Assembly (NCBI GenBank): GCA_000092065.1
Contig: CP000595.1
Length of the DNA: 64,000 bases
Source of the DNA: Ostreococcus lucimarinus
Lineage: Eukaryota
Strand: one strand, 5' to 3'
Below the pieces are notes generated by a model, which was given only the letters and a program-made list of their open reading frames with translations, did no database searches and had not been told where the DNA came from. Position 1 is the first letter of the stretch; each line of letters opens with the position of its first letter. Shown here piece by piece: positions 1,681 to 53,806 of this stretch. A program made the translations under genes and the position numbers.

Positions 1681-4600
1681 CTATTTTCTTGCCGCGTGGT
1701 ACAGCTCAATGTAATCCAACGCGGGTCTGTTCCATGAGAAATCGCACGACATGCAGTTTGCTTGCAAGGCGTGGAATTTTTCTATGTCGTTGTAGAACAG
1801 ATCAATGGCACGGTTCAACGCGTAGTCAATATCGTGCGCTTCTGTACCGTCGAACTGAAATCCATTCGGTGTCATTCCTTCCCATTCAGCCTTGGCGTGA
1901 TCGTGATCGTAATCAAATACAGTGTCCGCGAGACCGCCCGTACGACGAACGACGGGAACGGTGCCATATCGCATCGCAATGAGCTGAGATAAACCACACG
2001 GTTCGAACATCGACGGCACGAGAATCATATCGGAACCAGCGTAGATCAGGTGCGATAACGGTTCGTCAAAGTACAAGTGCAAGGCGGCATCGTTGAAATG
2101 GTTCTGTTTCAAAGCATTCGCCATGTCTTCAAACTCGCGCTGCACGTTCGGATCCGGGGCGCTTCCGAGCAGCACGACCTGACAACCTCGCTCGAGCGCT
2201 TTGAAAATGGCGTGCTTGATCAGATGAATTCCTTTTTGATGCGTAAGACGCGTTACGACGCCGATGAGCGGTACGTCGCTCTTGTTTGAAATGTTACTCC
2301 TCGAGCACAAAGCTGCGCGACAAGCCGCCTTGCCTTCAGCAACTGTGTCTATCTCATATGATACCGGTAAGCACTTGTCATTCGCTGGATCCCAGATATC
2401 GGGATCGATCCCGTTCACCACGCCGTGGAATTTTTGGAGTTGATGAGAGATGGAGTCGTGACCTGAAATCTCTTGCGCGTACGATCTCGACACCGTTGTC
2501 CCAATTTGACTGTAATCCATCGCCTCGCGGATCAAGCTTTGACCAAAGTCGAGGTTGTGAATGGTGAACACCACTCGAGGGTTACCTAAGCCATAGTTGT
2601 GATAGTCTTCCCAGTACACCTTGGCCACGGGTGCGGTTTGCCAATCGTGACAGTGAATGATGTCGGGCTGTCGACCGCTTTGCAACATCCATTCCAAAGC
2701 TGCTCGACTAAAGTATCCAAATCTCTCGGCATCCGTCAAAGGAATCTCCAAGTAGTCGGTACCGTAAATCATGCCAACCTTGAACATACCATTGTCTGGA
2801 TCGATGAAGTAAGTCTTCACTCCCTCTACGGTACCGCTGAAAACGTGGTTGTAACAGCCACCCCACTGAAAGCCTTCCTCCTCCTTCAAGTCTTCGATGA
2901 GATCGTACTTGAGGACGTCGTATTTCGGAAGAACGACTTCAACTTTGTGCCCTTCCGCTTGAACAGCCAATCCGAGTGATGTGACAACATCACCAAGGCC
3001 ACCAACCTTGGCGATTGGAGCCATTTCGACGCTCACGCTCACGACGTGAAGCGGCTTCTCCACCACGGCGACACCTTTTTCATCCTTGCCTCCGATCACG
3101 GGAATGTGATAGTCCATGTTGTTACGGTTATCGTAGTGAGCTCCTTCGTGGTTTCCGTTGGAGAACACGAAATCCATCATGTACGCGTCGGTAGGGATGT
3201 TCAACTCAACTTCCATGCGCTTTTCGCCCTTGACAAGAACCTCAGTCATGGGGAGTTTGAAAGTCTTTTCGTGCGACCATCTGTTCCAACTCCCCACGAT
3301 AAACACGCGCTCAGACCCTTTGAGCGACGTGTTATTGGGATTATAGAACAGCTTCATGATTTTGCCTGCCTCCAACTGACCCGGCTCTGTGAAAAGTACA
3401 TGCTCTTGCTGCTTGAGCGTCACCGCTTGCGCCTTCGCCTTTGCCTCCGCTTTCGCCTTATCTCGCTTGTCCTTCTTGATCTTATCAGCCTTCTCTTTTG
3501 CGTGTCGAGCAGTCGTAATTTCTTGAAATCGTTGCAAAACTGAACTCATTCGCGCAATCTCGAGTTTTTGCGAAGCGTTGCGAACCGGAGCGTGGAAATC
3601 TGCGCGGTCGGCGTTGTCGTAAATGGCACCGCCGTCGCTAAAGACAAAATCCATCACAGCGGCAGTTGCAGGCACATCGACCGTCGCGATGAATGTATCA
3701 TCAGCGCCAGTAGACTTTTCCATTCGCACTTGCTCGGCACCGGTCCAGTCATTCGAGCCGTAGTGCATAACAATGGTATTTTGGCCGTGAAGAACTCTGT
3801 TGGTGGGGCAATAGCGCACCGTGACGGGCATACCGACGACTGGTACCGCAGGTTCAAGACTCCAGAGGTTGGCATCGCTCGGTGTCGAGCCGTCCAAGTG
3901 TCGCGAAATCCCAGAAAACTTGGCTGATACTTCATTCGTGGCGATTTCCCAGTCCTTCGCGGCCATCGGGATCGCCGCCGCAAGTTCCTTCGCCTCGTCA
4001 TACGCGACTTGCAGCTCAGCGGATAATTCCTGTTCCATACGGAGCTCTTCATCGAGTTCGATAGTGGAGACCGTGTTCTTTTGACTTTTGGCCAGTTCTT
4101 CGGCCGCGAGGGCTTGAAGCTTGGCTTCGGCAAGAGCAGCAGCCTTGACCTTGGCTTCGGCCTCTGCCACGGCCTTTGCCTTAGCCTCCATCTCAGCAGC
4201 GGCGGCAGCTTCAGCTTCGGCTTGAGCGGCGGCAGCTTCAGCTTGAGCTTCGGCTTGAGCGGCAGCAGCTTCGGCTTTGGCTTGAGCGGCGGCAGCTTCA
4301 GCTTGAGCTTCGGCTTGAGCGGCAGCAGCTTGAGCTTCGGCTTCGGCTTGAGCGGTTGCGGCTTGAGCTTCGGCTTCGGCTTGAGCGGCGGCAGCTTGAG
4401 CTTCGGCTTCGGCTTGAGCGGCAGCAGCTTGAGCTTCGGCTTCGGCTTGAGCGGCGGCAGCTTGAGCTTCGGCTTCGGCTTGAGCGGCGGCAGCTTGAGC
4501 TTCGGCTTCGGCTTGAGCGGCGGCAGCTTGAGCTTCGGCTTCGGCTTGAGCGGTTGCGGCTTGAGCGGCGGCTTCTGTGTTGACGGCGACGTCGATGATA

Positions 4601-5922
4601 TCTTCATCAGTTTCTTCAACTTGCACGGTTCCCATTTCGCTAGTCTTTGTCGTAGACTTGCTCAATAAGAAGGCTTTCTCAGCTTTCTCTGCCGCTCGAA
4701 GTCTAGCTTCCAATACTTCGCGTTCTTGTCGCAACTTTTTCTCTTGCATGAGAAGCTCTTTGAGAGCGGCGCTCGCTTCATCTTTTCCGCTCGTCGCGCG
4801 CTCTTCAACTTCAGTAAACTCAACGGGAGCGGGTGGCGTCTCCACAACTTCGGAGACGACGGGCTCGCATGCTGGCTTCTGCGGATCTCGTGCCTTCGCT
4901 CTCGCCTCTGCATCTGCTCTTATCTTTGCCATCTTGGCATCCACCTGCGCTCTCACTCTGGCTCGCGTGTCTGCTTTCAACTTCTCCAACGCCGCGGCTT
5001 TCTCCTCTGGTGTTTTGGCGACAAATTTCGGCGCAGTTTTCTTTGCTTTTGCGTCTTCTTTTGCCTTGGCTTCCGCGAGACGCCGCTCCTCTTCGGCGGC
5101 CTCAGCCTTGGCGGCTCTTTTAGCTTCCATCGCCGCGCGAGCTTCGCTTTCAGCCTCGGCGGCGGCGCGCGCCTCGAGCTCTCGTTGCTCAATCGCCTTT
5201 CGAGCCGCAGCCTTCTCTCGCTTCTCCCTCAACTGTCTGTTCTCCTCCTCGAGCGCTCGAAACGCCATCAAAGACTGCCGCTCCGCCTCCAGTCGCCGCA
5301 ATTCCCGCTCCATCTCAGCCTCCTCGTCGCCCTCCGCCGCGCTCGCGCTCGGCGCCATGACCACCTCCATCTTCTTCGGCACCACCCCCTGCACCCCCCC
5401 GAACGCCTCTCGCGCCCGTATCTCGCTCTTCAGCGCCGTTATCTCCCCCCGCAGCGCGCGCACGTCCGCCGCTCTCGGCGCCCCCCCGTCCTCGCTCGGC
5501 GCCAGCATCGCTCGCAGCGTCGTCTCCAGCCCCTCCAACCGCGTTCGCAGTTCCTCCGTCGCGCTCCCTCGCGCGTCGTCCGTCACCGCGCGCGTCATCG
5601 CCCGCTCCCGTCGCCCGTCGTCGCGTCGTCGCGTCCCCGTCGTCGCGCCTTTTCGCATCCATCGCGTTTCCGTCGCGTTCGCGCGCGTTCGCCCCCTCGC
5701 GCGCGCCGTCGCGACGGCGTCCGCGCGCGTCGCGATCGCCGCGCCGAGCGCCATCGCGTCGAGCGTCGCGCGTCGCGCCTTCGCGCGTCGTGCGTCGCGC
5801 GCGTCGGCGTCGCGCGCGTCTCGTCTCGCCCGGGTGTGTGGTGTGGATAACGCGGCGTCGCGCGATCGCGCGGCGTCACTATACATGGGCGTTCGTACGG
5901 CGAATCGGGCGTATAGTAACAT
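1681..5922 (-). CDS. Starch synthase III-like: N-terminal coiled coil with Ala/Gln/Glu repeats, two CBM53 starch-binding modules, GT5 catalytic domain
   Basis: The C-terminal half has the GT5 glycogen/starch synthase signature KVGGLGDVVTSLG...VVLPKYD plus a GT1-type C-domain. Two CBM53 modules show the SWNRW / GSNDWTG signatures. The N-terminal roughly 650 aa is heptad-rich (EAE/KAK). The start is uncertain: the 5922 ATG lies inside a duplicated 61-bp repeat, and in-frame alternatives are 5886 (MYSDAARS) and 5754 (MALGAAIATRAD), per the start finding at 5880-6011. Confidence 0.8.
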   Translation of the reverse strand: MLLYARFAVRTPMYSDAARSRDAALSTPHTRARRDARDADARDARRAKARRATLDAMALGAAIATRADAVATARARGRTRANATETRWMRKGATTGTRRRDDGRRERAMTRAVTDDARGSATEELRTRLEGLETTLRAMLAPSEDGGAPRAADVRALRGEITALKSEIRAREAFGGVQGVVPKKMEVVMAPSASAAEGDEEAEMERELRRLEAERQSLMAFRALEEENRQLREKREKAAARKAIEQRELEARAAAEAESEARAAMEAKRAAKAEAAEEERRLAEAKAKEDAKAKKTAPKFVAKTPEEKAAALEKLKADTRARVRAQVDAKMAKIRADAEARAKARDPQKPACEPVVSEVVETPPAPVEFTEVEERATSGKDEASAALKELLMQEKKLRQEREVLEARLRAAEKAEKAFLLSKSTTKTSEMGTVQVEETDEDIIDVAVNTEAAAQAATAQAEAEAQAAAAQAEAEAQAAAAQAEAEAQAAAAQAEAEAQAAAAQAEAEAQAAAAQAEAEAQAATAQAEAEAQAAAAQAEAQAEAAAAQAKAEAAAAQAEAQAEAAAAQAEAEAAAAAEMEAKAKAVAEAEAKVKAAALAEAKLQALAAEELAKSQKNTVSTIELDEELRMEQELSAELQVAYDEAKELAAAIPMAAKDWEIATNEVSAKFSGISRHLDGSTPSDANLWSLEPAVPVVGMPVTVRYCPTNRVLHGQNTIVMHYGSNDWTGAEQVRMEKSTGADDTFIATVDVPATAAVMDFVFSDGGAIYDNADRADFHAPVRNASQKLEIARMSSVLQRFQEITTARHAKEKADKIKKDKRDKAKAEAKAKAQAVTLKQQEHVLFTEPGQLEAGKIMKLFYNPNNTSLKGSERVFIVGSWNRWSHEKTFKLPMTEVLVKGEKRMEVELNIPTDAYMMDFVFSNGNHEGAHYDNRNNMDYHIPVIGGKDEKGVAVVEKPLHVVSVSVEMAPIAKVGGLGDVVTSLGLAVQAEGHKVEVVLPKYDVLKYDLIEDLKEEEGFQWGGCYNHVFSGTVEGVKTYFIDPDNGMFKVGMIYGTDYLEIPLTDAERFGYFSRAALEWMLQSGRQPDIIHCHDWQTAPVAKVYWEDYHNYGLGNPRVVFTIHNLDFGQSLIREAMDYSQIGTTVSRSYAQEISGHDSISHQLQKFHGVVNGIDPDIWDPANDKCLPVSYEIDTVAEGKAACRAALCSRSNISNKSDVPLIGVVTRLTHQKGIHLIKHAIFKALERGCQVVLLGSAPDPNVQREFEDMANALKQNHFNDAALHLYFDEPLSHLIYAGSDMILVPSMFEPCGLSQLIAMRYGTVPVVRRTGGLADTVFDYDHDHAKAEWEGMTPNGFQFDGTEAHDIDYALNRAIDLFYNDIEKFHALQANCMSCDFSWNRPALDYIELYHAARK
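4195..4575. repeat. Coding tandem repeat, period 33 bp (about 9-10 copies), encoding AQAEAEAQAAA units in the SSIII N-terminal region
   Basis: Near-perfect repeats of gcttgagcggcggcagcttgagcttcggcttcggc are visible on the + strand. The minus-frame translation is AQAEAEAQAAAAQAEAEAQAAAA... Confidence 0.85.
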
Positions 5923-6011
5923 AGCGCCGCGTCGCGCGTCGTGTCGTCAGTATACATGGGCGTTCGTACGGCGAATCGGGCGTATAGTAACATAGCGCCG
6001 CGTCGCGCGTC
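5880..6011. repeat. Two identical copies of a 61-bp direct repeat separated by 10 bp, in the divergent SSIII/SET promoter
   Basis: tatacatgggcgttcgtacggcgaatcgggcgtatagtaacatagcgccgcgtcgcgcgtc occurs at 5880-5940 and again at 5951-6011. Each copy carries an ATG on both strands (catgg / ccatg). Confidence 0.9.
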
Positions 6012-7452
6012 ACATCGCGCGATGGCGCGCGCGTCGCGCGCGGAGCTCGCGCGGCGCGCGGTCGCGATCGCCGTCGCGGTCGCGGGCGTCGCGCTCGCGG
6101 CGACGCGCGCGAGCGACGACGCGCGCGCGACGGCGACGGCGACGGCGATCGCGACGCCGACGGCGCTCGACGCGCGATTTCTGCGATGGATGGACGCGCG
6201 CGCGCTCGCGGCGACGGACGACGCGCGAGCGCGCGGGATGGTCGTCGCGCGCGTCGAGGATTGGGAAGACGAACGCGCGGTGGGCGCGAGGCGAACGCGC
6301 GGGGCGTTTGGCGCGCGGGGAGGGAAAGGGGAGGTGGAGACGAGGATCGCGCGGGACGCGGCGCTCGAGCGCGGGGCGACGACGGCGGGCGCGGGGAAGG
6401 ATGAGTGGGCGCTGGCGATCGAATTGATGCGAGAGCGAGCGAAGGGAGGGGTGAGCGCGTACGCGCCGTTCGTGGAGTCGCTGTACGAACACACGCCGGC
6501 GAGGGCGGTGGAGACGTCGAGAGCGGCGCGCGCGCGGTTGGAGGGACACGCGGCGGCGGAGACGATGAGAGAGTACGAACGAGACGCGGAGGATGGATGG
6601 CGAGCGGCGCGAAGGACGTTTGAGACGTTTCCATCGATTTTTTCCGTTCATGAATTCACGCGCGCGGCGTTCGAGGAGGCGTTGGCGATCGTTCGCGCGA
6701 ACTCTTTCGAGGCGAGGAGCGAAGACGGGACGCGCGCGCGCGCGCTCGTGCCGATGGCGCATTTGCTTTTGCACGACACCGGGAGCGAGGTTCCGTGCGT
6801 GAAGATCGTAGACGGTGTGTTCGTCATAAACGTTGACGAGCACGAAGAGGGAGACGAGTTGTCGTGCAGTCACGGTGATTATTCCGACGCCGAGACGTTT
6901 GCACGATTCGGCGTGAGCGCGTTTTATTCAGCCGAGAAGAACGCGAGAAATAAGATAAAGTTTGCGTTTCCGAGCGAAATTTATTCCATGAAAAGCTTAG
7001 ATCGATGTGGATCCGTCGAAAATATCGCATTCACGGACGCGGGTGCGACGGAAGAGTTTATGTGCGCCTTGAGACTCGCCTCGGCGAATGAAACCGAATG
7101 GGCCGCAATCTCAAAGTCTAAAGCCAGCGTTCGAGCGCTTCGTAAGAAACCGCTGAGTGAGGAGAGCGAGATAGCGGTTTACGAAGCATTATTTGCCACG
7201 CTCACCGAGTTACTGAACTCCTACCCATCGAGCGATAACGAAGACGAGCGATTATTACAAAGTCGGACGCTGCAGTCGGCGCCCGACGAGGAGCGCGCGG
7301 TGACGATTCGTCTTCGAGAGAAACGTCTCGCGCTGAGTAGTTTGAATGCTGTCCAATACGCCGGTCGTCAACAACTCGGCGGTTTGTTGTTCGACAAGCA
7401 TTTTGCCGACGTGTTACCGTCTCCTGTCAACGTGCGGCAGACAAACGGATGA
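5956..7452 (+). CDS. SET-domain protein, Rubisco LSMT / SETD3-like lysine methyltransferase family
   Basis: A SET-like core is present: WALAIELMRER..SAYAPFVESL and ...ALVPMAHLLLHDTGSEV (NH/LH motif), followed by an Rubisco-LSMT-like C-terminal region. The track ORF begins at GTG (5941). In-frame ATGs are at 5956 (inside the repeat) and 6022 (MARASRAELARRAVAIAVAVAGVALAA, signal/TM-like). The start is unresolved. Confidence 0.5.
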   Translation: MGVRTANRAYSNIAPRRASHRAMARASRAELARRAVAIAVAVAGVALAATRASDDARATATATAIATPTALDARFLRWMDARALAATDDARARGMVVARVEDWEDERAVGARRTRGAFGARGGKGEVETRIARDAALERGATTAGAGKDEWALAIELMRERAKGGVSAYAPFVESLYEHTPARAVETSRAARARLEGHAAAETMREYERDAEDGWRAARRTFETFPSIFSVHEFTRAAFEEALAIVRANSFEARSEDGTRARALVPMAHLLLHDTGSEVPCVKIVDGVFVINVDEHEEGDELSCSHGDYSDAETFARFGVSAFYSAEKNARNKIKFAFPSEIYSMKSLDRCGSVENIAFTDAGATEEFMCALRLASANETEWAAISKSKASVRALRKKPLSEESEIAVYEALFATLTELLNSYPSSDNEDERLLQSRTLQSAPDEERAVTIRLREKRLALSSLNAVQYAGRQQLGGLLFDKHFADVLPSPVNVRQTNG

Positions 7453-11196: not shown

Positions 11197-11299
11197 GCGC
11201 GGCGCCGCGCGACGACGACGACGACGACGGCGACGCGCGGCGACGTGCCGGTAACACTATTCGTTTTCATCACTCCGCGACGCACGACGACGGGTGTTG

Positions 11300-11345
11300 C
11301 GCGCGCGCGATGGGCGCGCGCGCGCGATGGGCGCGCGCGATGGCG
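11300..11345. repeat. Three tandem copies of gcgcgcgatgg overlapping the GT25 start region, within the divergent promoter shared with the CULT-domain gene
   Basis: cgcgcgatgggcgcgcgcgcgcgatgggcgcgcgcgatggcgg gives three in-frame ATGs. Confidence 0.6.
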
Positions 11346-29013: not shown

Positions 29014-31620
29014 TTAATCGAGCGCCAATGGAATATCCCCTTCTTGCAACAATCTTCCAATCTGTGCCATCCGATCCCTGTTTGCCTTCTTCTCCGTGGC
29101 CATATCTAAGAGTAAGCTTCGCATCTCGTGCTCGACGTCGTCGACTCGCTCGTACGCTTCGCGCACGATGGCATCGCTTTCCTCTCTGATGGCGATTGCC
29201 CGCGTCTCATACATACTGGCCTTATCCCTCGCGATCGCCAGTTGTTCACTCAGCTCCTCCAATTGGTGCTGCAATTCTTTACTCTTCGCTTTTTCGATAC
29301 TATCACTCGTCTCCAGAGTCTGCGTCAACCGCTTGATCTGGGATTCCATGTGAACAATTATGCGGTCGCGTTCAGCCACGGCATTATTTGCTTTGCTGAT
29401 CGCGTGCTCATACGATGCGTGATCGACCTCGGAGTCCGCGAGAGCATTTTCTAGCTCTGTGATGTTCATTTCCATCGACTCTACCTGTTGGACCAAAGAT
29501 CGACACTCTTCCGACATCGCATTCATCCTTGCTTCCGCCTCCACCATTCTCGCGTCGTGCGTCCTCAACGATTCCGCTTTTTGTTCGCGTAATCGAACAG
29601 CTTCATCCTTCAGAGACTTAATGAGCTGATTCTGGTGCTGAAGCATATCGTTCTTGATCTTTGTGCTCTCATCTGCTGATTCGAGCTTCAATTGAAGAGC
29701 CTCGACGTCCCGGATGAGTCGCTCGGCGAGCTCTTCTCGCTCGCGAGCCTTCTCTTCTCGCGCCGCGGCGGACCTCTCAGCCTTCAACGCCGCGACTTTG
29801 GCGCTCTTGATCGTCGCATGCGTGCTTTCCCTATCTATCACCGCCCCACGGGCGCGCTCGAGCTCTTCTTCCATGAGAACAACCATCTCACGCGTCTTGG
29901 CGTAACCTTCGAGTTGATCGCGTTGACTTTCCACCACTTGCGCCAATTCCTCGTTGAGTGTCTCAGCCTCGGCGCGTTCGGCACACGCGACTCGAAGTAA
30001 TTCTCGCATCTCACTGAGACCCGCTTCTTGGGCAGCAATTTTCTCGTTACTCGCGATCGCGGCTTCTTCGTGCGCATGCTGTTCGCGTTCCATCGACGAA
30101 ATACGCTCCTTCAAGCGCGCGTTCTCCTCGATGGCTTGCGCGTACACCGTCGATTCCTTACGAGCTTCGTTCACGCGATCGTTTAGCAACGCGTTTTGCT
30201 CGTCCATGTACATGGCTTTCAGATTTGCGAGATTCTCCGCAGATTCCGTCCTGACTTCTTGCAATATCGTCTCCAACTCACTGACTCGCAGTTGTGCTGC
30301 TTCCTCGTTTCTCGACGCGCGCTCGATGGCTTGCGAGGCTTTGGTCAACTCTCGGCGGAGAGTTTCGACTTCTTCACGAAGGCGGCGCTCGCTCGCGTCG
30401 TCGATCGTCACGTTAGACATCGCACTCTTCTGCGTCTCTACGTCTTTCATCAAAGGTGCCTCCGTTTGACTCGACTCTTCCCGAACGCGCCTGACGACTT
30501 GCTGATCAAAATCGATGGCTCGCTTCGCCGCATCCCCGTTGACCTGCACGCCGCGCGATTTGACGCTCTCATCGGCGGCTTGGAAGGCTGTTTGTCGTTT
30601 TTCACCCGAACGGTCCCCGCGTTGAGGCGTTCTCGAAAACTGCTCTGCGTGGGGAGGCGTCATGCTGCTTCGTCCGGGAGCCGTCGTCGCAGACGCGTCG
30701 AGAGTCTTTGTCATCGCCTTTGTGCACGTTTCGACGCTTAAAACCACACCATCTAGGTGCGTGAGCCAAGGAACGAGCGATGCCATCGTAATTCTATATG
30801 ACGGCACATCGCACATCCCGTTCGTTTCTTTCCCGATCACCGATCCTTCTTCCATTTTCAACCGAAGCGATTCCAAGCGCGTCAACTCGCTGAGCGCTCG
30901 CGCGGCTTGGAAACTTTCCAACGCGTTCCCTCGCGCGTCGAGCGCGCGAATGCCCCACTCCGCCCCGTCACTCCTCGCAAACCCACTCAAAGACTTGATT
31001 TTATTATTGGAAATGTTCACTCGCTCCAGCGTCGTCGACGCTCGTTCGAATCCCCTCGTCGACTCGAGCGCGTTGCTCGCCAGATTCAGCGTTCGCAGGC
31101 GAGTCAACTTTTCCAACCCTCTCGCCTCCGCGATGGCGTTCGACGACAGATCGAGTTCTTCCAACCGCGTCAACACCGCGAACGCTTCGCAATCCATGCT
31201 CGTTATCTCGCACGCGTGCGCTCGCAGCGCGCGTAAATTTACGAATCTCTCCAGCGATTCGATCCGCTCCGGCGTCCCGAGCGCCGTCCCGTACGTCGCC
31301 AGCTCTCGCACGTCCTCATCCGCCATCGTCGTCGACGGTCTCAGATCGATCGTCCCTCGACCTCCCGCACCGCGCGCGCCCGCGTCTTCTACCTCGCGCC
31401 CCGTCGTCCCTTCCCCCTCCCGCGCGCGCGTCCGCGTCCCGTCCCGCCCCTCGCGCGCGCGTCCCGATAACGAGGCGTCGTCGTCGCCATCGCTCGCGTC
31501 GTCGCCATCGCTCCCTCGGTCCTTCGCCCGCGTCCCGACCGCGACCGCGACCGCGCGCGCGGAGTCCTCTCGATCGAGCGTCGCGCCCTCGCTCGCGCGC
31601 GCCTCCCGCGCGCGCTCCAT
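29014..31620 (-). CDS. Leucine-rich-repeat plus long coiled-coil protein (LRRCC1/centriolin-like, centrosomal type)
   Basis: The N-terminus has SDS22-like LRRs (LEELDLSSNAIAEARGLEKLTRLRTLNLASNALES...). The following roughly 550 aa is heptad-rich coiled coil. Confidence 0.6.
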   Translation of the reverse strand: MERAREARASEGATLDREDSARAVAVAVGTRAKDRGSDGDDASDGDDDASLSGRAREGRDGTRTRAREGEGTTGREVEDAGARGAGGRGTIDLRPSTTMADEDVRELATYGTALGTPERIESLERFVNLRALRAHACEITSMDCEAFAVLTRLEELDLSSNAIAEARGLEKLTRLRTLNLASNALESTRGFERASTTLERVNISNNKIKSLSGFARSDGAEWGIRALDARGNALESFQAARALSELTRLESLRLKMEEGSVIGKETNGMCDVPSYRITMASLVPWLTHLDGVVLSVETCTKAMTKTLDASATTAPGRSSMTPPHAEQFSRTPQRGDRSGEKRQTAFQAADESVKSRGVQVNGDAAKRAIDFDQQVVRRVREESSQTEAPLMKDVETQKSAMSNVTIDDASERRLREEVETLRRELTKASQAIERASRNEEAAQLRVSELETILQEVRTESAENLANLKAMYMDEQNALLNDRVNEARKESTVYAQAIEENARLKERISSMEREQHAHEEAAIASNEKIAAQEAGLSEMRELLRVACAERAEAETLNEELAQVVESQRDQLEGYAKTREMVVLMEEELERARGAVIDRESTHATIKSAKVAALKAERSAAAREEKAREREELAERLIRDVEALQLKLESADESTKIKNDMLQHQNQLIKSLKDEAVRLREQKAESLRTHDARMVEAEARMNAMSEECRSLVQQVESMEMNITELENALADSEVDHASYEHAISKANNAVAERDRIIVHMESQIKRLTQTLETSDSIEKAKSKELQHQLEELSEQLAIARDKASMYETRAIAIREESDAIVREAYERVDDVEHEMRSLLLDMATEKKANRDRMAQIGRLLQEGDIPLALD

Positions 31621-31819
31621 GCGCGCCGGCGCCCGAGCCGTCGCGAAGTCGCGGTCGACGGACAGACATCGCGCGCCGGAGACGCCGGGCGCGTGCCTTG
31701 ATTTTCCGGGTGTGCGGACCCCTCGCGTCGACGGGTCGCGACCCGCGACGGGGGTTCACGGCGCGCGATCGATCGAGATCCGCGAAAAAGGCGACGCTCG
31801 GCGACGCTTGGCATGGCGC

Positions 31820-31875
31820 GTCCGAACGTCCGAACGTCCGAACGTCCGAACGTCCGAACGTCCGAACGTCCGAAC
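31820..31875. repeat. (GTCCGAAC)7 perfect 8-mer array (plus one degenerate copy) in the LRR/TPR divergent intergenic region
   Basis: cgtccgaacgtccgaacgtccgaacgtccgaacgtccgaacgtccgaacgtccgaacgtcgacg. Confidence 0.9.
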
Positions 31876-31925
31876 GTCCGAACGTCGACGCGCGCGCGTC
31901 CGAACGTCGACGCGCGCGCGGCGCG

Positions 31926-32043
31926 ATGCGGGCGCGACGGGCGGCGACGGCGGCGACGACGCGATCGAGGGCGAGACGAGACGAGGACGGACGACGCCTC
32001 GAACGGGCGTCGCGCGTCGCGACGACGACGACGACGACGACGA

Positions 32044-53189: not shown

Positions 53190-53456
53190 CTACTTACAAT
53201 CATCCCTGTACTCAAACAACCCGCAATCTCCTCCCCAGGGAAACTGCTCGCGATTGCGAATTCTCAGGTACGAGTACGCCGGGTTCTCGTGCCCGTGTCC
53301 GTGCGCCGCGTTGGACAGCGTGTACACCCCGAACCCAGCGCACGCGGGTATGACGAGCATGGAGACGGCGCGCCATTTATTCATCTCCGCTGTTTCATCG
53401 CGTCGATCGCGTTTCAGCGCGTCAGTCGCGCGCGCTCGTCGTTTTCGCGCGCGCAT
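53190..53456 (-). CDS. COX6A: Cytochrome c oxidase subunit 6a (COX6A/Cox13)
   Basis: ...ETAEMNKWRAVSMLVIPACAGFGVYTLSNAAHGHGHENPAYSYLRIRNREQFPWGGDCGLFEY aligns with plant COX6a (AAKWEKITYLGIASCTALAVYVLSKGHHHGEDPPAYPYMHIRNKEFPWGPDGLFE). ATGs are at 53456 (MRARKRRARAT..., basic leader) and 53384. It is buried in a longer spurious track ORF (53190-53984). Confidence 0.55.
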   Translation of the reverse strand: MRARKRRARATDALKRDRRDETAEMNKWRAVSMLVIPACAGFGVYTLSNAAHGHGHENPAYSYLRIRNREQFPWGGDCGLFEYRDDCK

Positions 53457-53806
53457 CGTCGTCGCGTCGCGATCGTTCGGTTCGCGCGTTCGTTCGTTCG
53501 CGCGCGCGACGCACCGATCTCTTCCTCGACGCTCGCGCCGGAGCTCATCGAGCGGGCGCGGGAAATTTGTTCGACGCGTTTGGGCGATCGCGCGGCGCGC
53601 GCGACGAGTCGGGCGAGCATGGCGAGCGCGCGTGTGTGCGGGCTGGGGTCGCGCGCGCGCGCGCGGATCCCCGGGTGGGAATCCGAGGTGGGGTGATGGT
53701 ACAAACCTATGACGAGCTATGGGATCTAATGACGACGCGATCGCGACGATCGCGCGAGGGTGAGAGGGAAAGGACACGACGCGTGACCGGGGACGACGGC
53801 GTGGGG

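Follow-up and report, generated by a model that had tools for sequence, protein, structure and literature searches.

What is the short repeated element that lies between the divergently oriented genes for a starch synthase III (SSIII)-like protein and a SET-family protein in the picoalga Ostreococcus lucimarinus, and do the ATG codons that it carries begin either protein? We analysed a stretch of 64,000 nucleotides of contig CP000595.1 (assembly GCA_000092065.1), hereafter the window, in which the element occupies positions 5870-6011. The original prediction had described two perfect 61-bp copies with a 10-bp spacer between them and had offered two readings, a duplicated non-coding promoter or leader module or a duplication that created alternative start codons; what it missed is that the element is a copy-number-polymorphic minisatellite. 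We hold with high confidence that the array is a locus-specific 71-bp minisatellite of polymorphic copy number (a variable number tandem repeat, VNTR) in the non-coding 267-bp gap between the divergent SSIII and SET-family genes. As a promoter minisatellite it is an ordinary kind of feature, and no earlier description of this locus was found in the literature.

The array consists of two units in the window:

5870-5940: minisatellite unit 1 (71 bp), GCGGCGTCAC followed by TATACATGGGCGTTCGTACGGCGAATCGGGCGTATAGTAACATAG and CGCCGCGTCGCGCGTC, delimited by Tandem Repeats Finder (TRF), by a repeat search and by the register taken from 25 related contigs.
5941-6011: minisatellite unit 2 (71 bp), differing from unit 1 only by 3 mismatches, all within the first 10 nt (GTGTCGTCAG).

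When the window letters are compared, the 61-nt stretches at 5880-5940 and 5951-6011 are identical, as had been predicted. The ten nucleotides between them are not a spacer: GTGTCGTCAG is the diverged beginning of unit 2, equivalent to GCGGCGTCAC in unit 1 with 3 mismatches, and the whole is built of 71-bp units arranged head to tail. TRF reported the repeat at 5874-6011 with a period of 71, 1.9 copies and 98% matches, and a second repeat search paired 5869-5939 with 5940-6010 at 96% (family D5). A 45-nt core has exactly two matches in the window, where 100 shuffles give an expectation of 0. Downstream of the last unit there is always ACATCGCGCG and then ATG 6022, and the distance from the last unit to this ATG is constant in all gap-free alleles, bar one contig with indel noise. 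The array does not fill the intergenic interval, as had been supposed, and takes up 142 of the 267 bp between ATG 5754 and ATG 6022, on the SET-gene side, where it forms the GC-poorest part of a gap that is otherwise 70-85% GC (57.7% in the window as a whole).

Metagenome contigs carrying the same locus were collected by exact matches to the 498-aa gene call P0001 (L001-L010, ENA), by exact matches to the 476-aa protein starting at 6022 (L025-L034, ENA) and by searching 241 million metagenome records at JGI for the conserved 25-mer ATACATGGGCGTTCGTACGGCGAAT (L018-L022), giving 25 contigs for comparison. Arrays were taken as complete when both flanks were present and free of gaps, and these had the following unit numbers:

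1 unit: L030, L034
2 units: the window, L005, L009, L025, L027, L032, L033
3 units: L002, L021
4 units: L001, L006, L026
5 units: L004

One further contig, L010, holds at least 5 units in an array that runs off the contig end, and the indel noise in L026, a contig of 214 kb, suggests long reads. Wild alleles are thereby shown to range from 1 to at least 5 units.

Unit spacing is exactly 71 in every short-read allele, while the units themselves vary: the centre reads CGGGCG or GCGTCG, another position reads TAAC or TGAC, and CpG-to-TpG changes occur in the GC-rich junction, so that 23 distinct units are found among 60 complete ones. In the long arrays (L001, L004 and L010) units of the CGGGCG/TGAC type alternate with units of the GCGTCG/TAAC type, producing a two-unit higher-order period of 142 bp, which suggests expansion by unequal exchange in a two-unit register. 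Minisatellite units are defined as 10-60 or 10-100 bp long (PMC3887541). The locus has the features of a VNTR: head-to-tail copies of a unit within the 10-100 bp range, unit numbers that differ between individuals or populations (1, 2, 3, 4 and 5 in independent contigs, mostly from short reads) and variant units interspersed within arrays.

Whether any of this is translated depends on the two genes and on the ATGs within and beside the array:

1681-5754, minus strand: starch synthase III-like gene (Pfam: two CBM53 domains and GT5/GT1), likeliest start 5754 (MALGAAIATRA...).
6022-7452, plus strand: Rubisco-LSMT-like SET-family gene (Pfam PF09273, substrate-binding domain), likeliest start 6022 (MARASRAELARRAVAIAVAVAGVALAA).
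5833-5845: GT-rich tract polymorphic for indels, reading GGGTGTGTGGTGTGGATAAC, GGGTGTGTGTGTGGATAAC or GGGTGTGTGGATAAC.
5884-5922, minus strand: ATGs 5922 and 5886 in unit 1, extending the SSIII open reading frame (ORF) by 56 or 44 codons in the window's allele.
5956-6021, plus strand: possible 22-codon in-frame extension of the SET-family gene, MGVRTANRAYSNIAPRRASHRA, with its ATG in the last unit.
5885-5995, plus strand: out-of-frame upstream ATG in unit 1, opening a 36-codon ORF with its stop TAG at 5993-5995 in unit 2.

The long minus-strand SSIII ORF spans 1681-5922. In the window's allele ATGs 5922 and 5886 are in frame with it and ATG 5956 is in frame with 6022, as originally stated, although ATG 5922 comes from the CAT of AACATAG and not from the catgg motif to which it had been assigned. 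The proposal that the duplication supplies real alternative starts, and so lengthens the N-terminus of SSIII (from 5922 or 5886), of the SET-family protein (from 5956) or of both, draws on these open frames and on the choice of ATG 5956 by metagenome gene callers (P0001, 498 aa). We nevertheless judge it unlikely, and the evidence differs between the two genes. On the SSIII side the GT-rich tract occurs in length classes of 0, -1 and -5 nt, placing the repeat 126, 125 or 121 nt from ATG 5754, and in alleles with the 125- or 121-nt spacing both 5922 and 5886 are out of frame with SSIII; because such frame-breaking indels occur in many alleles, neither ATG can be the SSIII start. The SSIII proteins of Ostreococcus tauri and of O. 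tauri-like relatives begin with MSALGG or MSTLGG, corresponding to MALGAA at 5754. Reading through a variable number of units is not possible either, since 71 is not a multiple of 3 (71 mod 3 = 2), and neither on the SSIII side nor across units is a frame kept among alleles and orthologues.

On the SET-family side, orthologues lack an extension of the 5956 type. The O. tauri protein starts MALARAVV... from gcgATGGCGCTCGCGCGCGCGG, which matches gcgATGGCGCGCGCGTCGCGCGCGG at 6022 in the window, and its annotated start falls, in the alignment, on the N-terminal region read from that position. GC content at third codon positions is 0.90 in the first 100 codons from 6022 versus 0.59 in the 22 codons upstream (as a measure of codon usage, weakly informative), and the central unit variant turns RA into AS by three substitutions, without sign of constraint. 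ATG 5956, the only ATG that is always in frame, is present in single-copy alleles and so was not created by duplication; the extra units add only out-of-frame ATGs. Nor do the two proteins share a repeat-encoded 5' end, as had been claimed: MLLYARFAVRTPMY is the minus-strand reading only, and the plus strand of the last unit reads MGVRTANRAYSNIAPRRASHRA. Taken from the sequence comparisons, a non-coding repeat within a gap at 5755-6021, with starts at 5754 and 6022, is supported, and the O. tauri starts, the 71-bp steps and the frame-shifting indel polymorphism all agree with that half of the original prediction. The upstream ATG at 5885 would be relevant only if transcription starts upstream of the array.

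That the repeat is an assembly artefact, or that its polymorphism comes from mis-assembly, is very unlikely. Contigs do often end or carry gaps here: the array breaks the contig in four of the five JGI contigs and in L007 and L010 as well, and four scaffolds have N gaps in it, the usual behaviour of assemblers at polymorphic tandem repeats. In L008, positions 1-28 are an inverted fragment of a unit junction (GTATACTGACGACGCGAC...) just outside the array, of a form typical of assemblers and probably an artefact, not biology. Against a general artefact, two or more units with the same junctions are found in many independent samples and with several kinds of assembly (MEGAHIT k141, SPAdes-style NODE, scaffolds and probable long-read), and the window's array is reproduced exactly, letter for letter, by L032. 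Collapse alone cannot yield distinct orders of unit variants, and contigs with a single unit require k-mers that span both flanks.

All copies of the unit are at the SSIII/SET-family gap. In every contig that reaches them they lie between the same unique flanks, ...GTGTGGATAACGCGGCGTCGCGCGATCGC on the left and ACATCGCGCGATGG... on the right, each present wherever the contig extends that far. All five JGI matches to the 25-mer (5/5) are this locus with these flanks; no match was found outside it in the JGI metagenomes, none (0) in viral contigs and no further copy elsewhere in the window, by exact-match scans that would miss copies diverged by more than a few percent. These searches place the unit at one locus and argue against the widely dispersed element that would have refuted the original prediction. 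Some inverted symmetry is present in the unit:

5868-5927: imperfect inverted repeat, arms 5868-5884 and 5911-5927 (17 nt, 76% complementary, core CTATAC...GTATAG), surrounding a GC-rich centre with the palindrome CGTACG.

This symmetry, together with an A/T-containing core that contrasts with the GC-rich flanks, is what a small mobile or foldback element might leave if it were inserted and then tandemly amplified, and the array resembles miniature inverted-repeat transposable elements (MITEs) and the introner elements of Mamiellales in being short, repeated and in part internally symmetrical. Such an origin is hardly credible for this locus. Of the hallmarks of MITEs and transposons, dispersed copies were not found in the exact-match scans, the array shows no target-site duplication pattern, and the inverted repeat is a weak internal one (17 nt, 76%); the single-copy allele has the same unique flanks; and, unlike those elements, the array is tandem and not interspersed, and is intergenic, hence not an intron.

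Least likely of all is a small structured RNA gene in each unit (a tandem snoRNA or miRNA-like cluster expressed from the gap), for although tandem small-RNA clusters occur in eukaryotes and short hairpins such as TACGGCG-AATG-CGTCGTA in the GCGTCG variant can be drawn, Rfam at its gathering threshold gave no match to the repeat in the whole window, its E-value mode over 5700-6150 gave only weak sub-threshold chance matches, in GC-rich flanks (one of 15.6 bits overlapping the repeat and the best nearby of 23.8 bits, each against a gathering score of 70), ARAGORN found no tRNA, fold energies of the two-unit array, and of either variant of the single unit on either strand, had z of -0.6 to +1.7 against shuffles with no stable fold, the CGGGCG/GCGTCG variants are not compensatory, and C/D or H/ACA box patterns were not seen in the unit by eye. 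No transcript-derived contig was found among the related contigs (P0002 and cluster members examined), which carry neighbouring genes and are therefore genomic.

Several points weigh against the reading of the array as a non-coding promoter minisatellite. ATG 5956 is in frame and a constant 66 nt before 6022 in every allele, including those with a single copy, and a 22-residue N-terminal extension of the SET-family protein from this ATG is possible. The unit counts come mostly from short-read metagenome assemblies, which are poor at tandem repeats, so individual counts may err and some arrays may be longer than they look; in the window itself, the 2 copies could stand for a longer array that was collapsed. 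TATA and CGTACG are not enriched in the window's intergenic DNA, which leaves no particular factor site in the unit with support. Promoter or leader status, like any effect on expression, is something that we infer from position and sequence.

Two candidate sites within the unit were tried and rejected. A TATA box in the CTATAC...GTATAG core found no clear enrichment behind it, 13 of the 57 TATA tetramers in the window lying in the approximately 17% of it outside long ORFs, and an SBP/CRR1-type GTAC core at the CGTACG palindrome fared no better, with only 5 of 38 CGTACG sites being intergenic and no enrichment. Outside the array the gap holds a further candidate:

5841-5853: GTGTGGATAACGC, candidate conserved cis-element, a 13-mer common to the O. 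tauri gap (O. tauri locus, L011, 5594-5606).

In both species the 13-mer is on the SSIII side of the repeat, 87 nt (window) and 133 nt (O. tauri) upstream of the SSIII ATG, and its GGATAAC occurs a single time in the 64 kb. A comparison of the two gaps by their longest common substring, in which 13-mers arise by chance in 19% of shuffles, was uninformative because of CG-rich low complexity; a test for A/T-containing 13-mers was used instead, and one was shared in only 3 of 3000 shuffles. We regard GTGTGGATAACGC as a candidate conserved SSIII promoter element with a GATA/I-box-like core.

A minisatellite of this kind could have arisen as follows. A segment near the promoter or in the 5' leader of the SET-family gene, at first present once, would have been duplicated, possibly seeded by the short end homology GCG.CGTCAC, 71 bp apart, and the array would later have grown and shrunk through slippage in replication and through unequal exchange, in part by 142 bp at a time. 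The ATGs would simply come with the A/T-containing core and would start no protein, except possibly the invariant in-frame ATG 5956. The array is likely to be a length-variable piece of a shared promoter or 5' leader. Unit number would then set the distance between GTGTGGATAACGC on the SSIII side and the SET-family gene, and extra units would multiply any factor sites or start sites present in the unit; should transcription start upstream of the array, every further unit would also contribute an out-of-frame upstream ATG (a 36-codon upstream ORF, uORF).

By analogy, unit number could modulate how strongly one gene or both are expressed: in yeast, variable tandem repeats in promoters reportedly alter expression, as described by Vinces et al. 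2009. The array shares with VNTRs of promoters and 5' untranslated regions (5'-UTRs) its head-to-tail units of 10-100 bp, its place immediately upstream of a start codon, copy-number differences between individuals, variant units and restriction to one locus. It differs from them in lying in a 267-bp divergent gap of a compact genome, so that two genes could be affected, and from typical promoter repeats in that its 71-bp unit is long by comparison. In land plants, tandem-repeat density is highest in 5'-UTRs and in the 200 nt upstream (PMC3887541).

The gap in which the array lies is of a conserved kind. The opposite-strand starts are less than 1 kb apart (267 bp between the orthologue-supported starts, 5755-6021), as in a divergent promoter, and the arrangement is kept in O. 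tauri, where the genes follow one another in the same order (hydrolase, CbiX, minus-strand SSIII and plus-strand SET-family gene), and in L016, a relative of 49% identity with the same synteny. The O. tauri gap also holds a tandem repeat, of 26 bp in 5.7 copies (L011 5775-5926), 75 nt upstream of the SET-family ATG, and this is the only strong non-coding tandem repeat in the 13-kb locus. It resembles the window's array in occupying the same syntenic gap, on the same SET-gene side and downstream of GTGTGGATAACGC, whereas its unit, GGGTTTTGTTTTGTGTGCGCTCGTAT, is unrelated in sequence and length and is 78% homogeneous versus 98% in the window; the unrelated unit and the lower homogeneity point to independent origin or complete turnover. 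In L016 the gap contains (GCATTC)n arrays at 5686-5731 and 5847-5911. In L035, whose SSIII catalytic domain is 92% identical, (CATTCT)n and (GACC)n lie upstream of SSIII, at 1-60 and approximately 170-200; the 71-mer is absent and the contig breaks at the repeat.

Tandem repeats are also found in other short gaps of the window: CGTCCGAA in 11.5 copies at 31819-31920, between divergent ORFs that end at 31620 (minus strand) and start at 31926 (plus strand); a 17-bp repeat of 2.4 copies at 11299-11343, at the 11196/11310 divergent pair; and a repeat of 17-19 bp in 4.4 copies at 53392-53508, in a short gap between genes. Because other short intergenic gaps in the window hold tandem repeats, promoters or 5' regions rich in repeats may be common throughout this genome, with nothing special about the SSIII/SET gap.

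As for the genes themselves, protein searches with the SSIII catalytic domain found metagenome proteins at 88-92% identity and plant SS3 at approximately 58%, confirming the SSIII type. The SSIII coding region has a tandem repeat of its own at 4207-4575 (33 bp in 11.4 copies, encoding AEAEAQAAAAQ-type repeats), whose unit differs by lineage (18 bp in 27 copies in O. tauri, L011 3756-4240, and 36 or 30 bp in L016), a second and independent site of repeat turnover in the same gene. Among named proteins, the SET-family protein is closest to one from O. tauri, "Rubisco LS methyltransferase, substrate-binding domain", with which it shares 55% identity, and the N-terminus read from 6022 is hydrophobic and signal-like. 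The C-terminus is KDEL in the SET/LSMT-like orthologues of O. tauri and four metagenome relatives and REEL in one (ER-retention-type; ER, endoplasmic reticulum). The window protein ends ...VNVRQTNG* (7440-7452), without KDEL, and the sequence after its stop, CGCGTGATCGAGTTG, resembles a decayed ...DEL remnant. The ER-retention-type C-termini together with the hydrophobic signal-like N-terminus suggest that the SET/LSMT-like protein is ER-resident, not plastid.

These results bear first on gene models: the repeat-encoded N-termini MLLYARF... (SSIII) and probably MGVRTAN... (SET-family) should not be annotated. The array explains why metagenome contigs break at this spot in an abundant picoalga, and the locus could be a simple marker of strains or populations in this Ostreococcus species. 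A bolder and rather improbable extension is that the SSIII/SET divergent promoter might be a recurrent hotspot at which tandem repeats are born independently in each Ostreococcus lineage (71-bp in the window species, 26-bp in O. tauri and hexanucleotide or tetranucleotide arrays in two relatives), with unit number in the window species (1 to at least 5) as a heritable "tuning knob", in natural populations, for the expression of a gene of starch metabolism, its neighbour or both; the knob would act through spacing, site multiplication or added uORFs. If copy number were shown to alter the expression of SSIII or its neighbour, the locus would be a natural instance of a promoter made evolvable by repeats, in a genome that ranks among the most compact of free-living eukaryotes.

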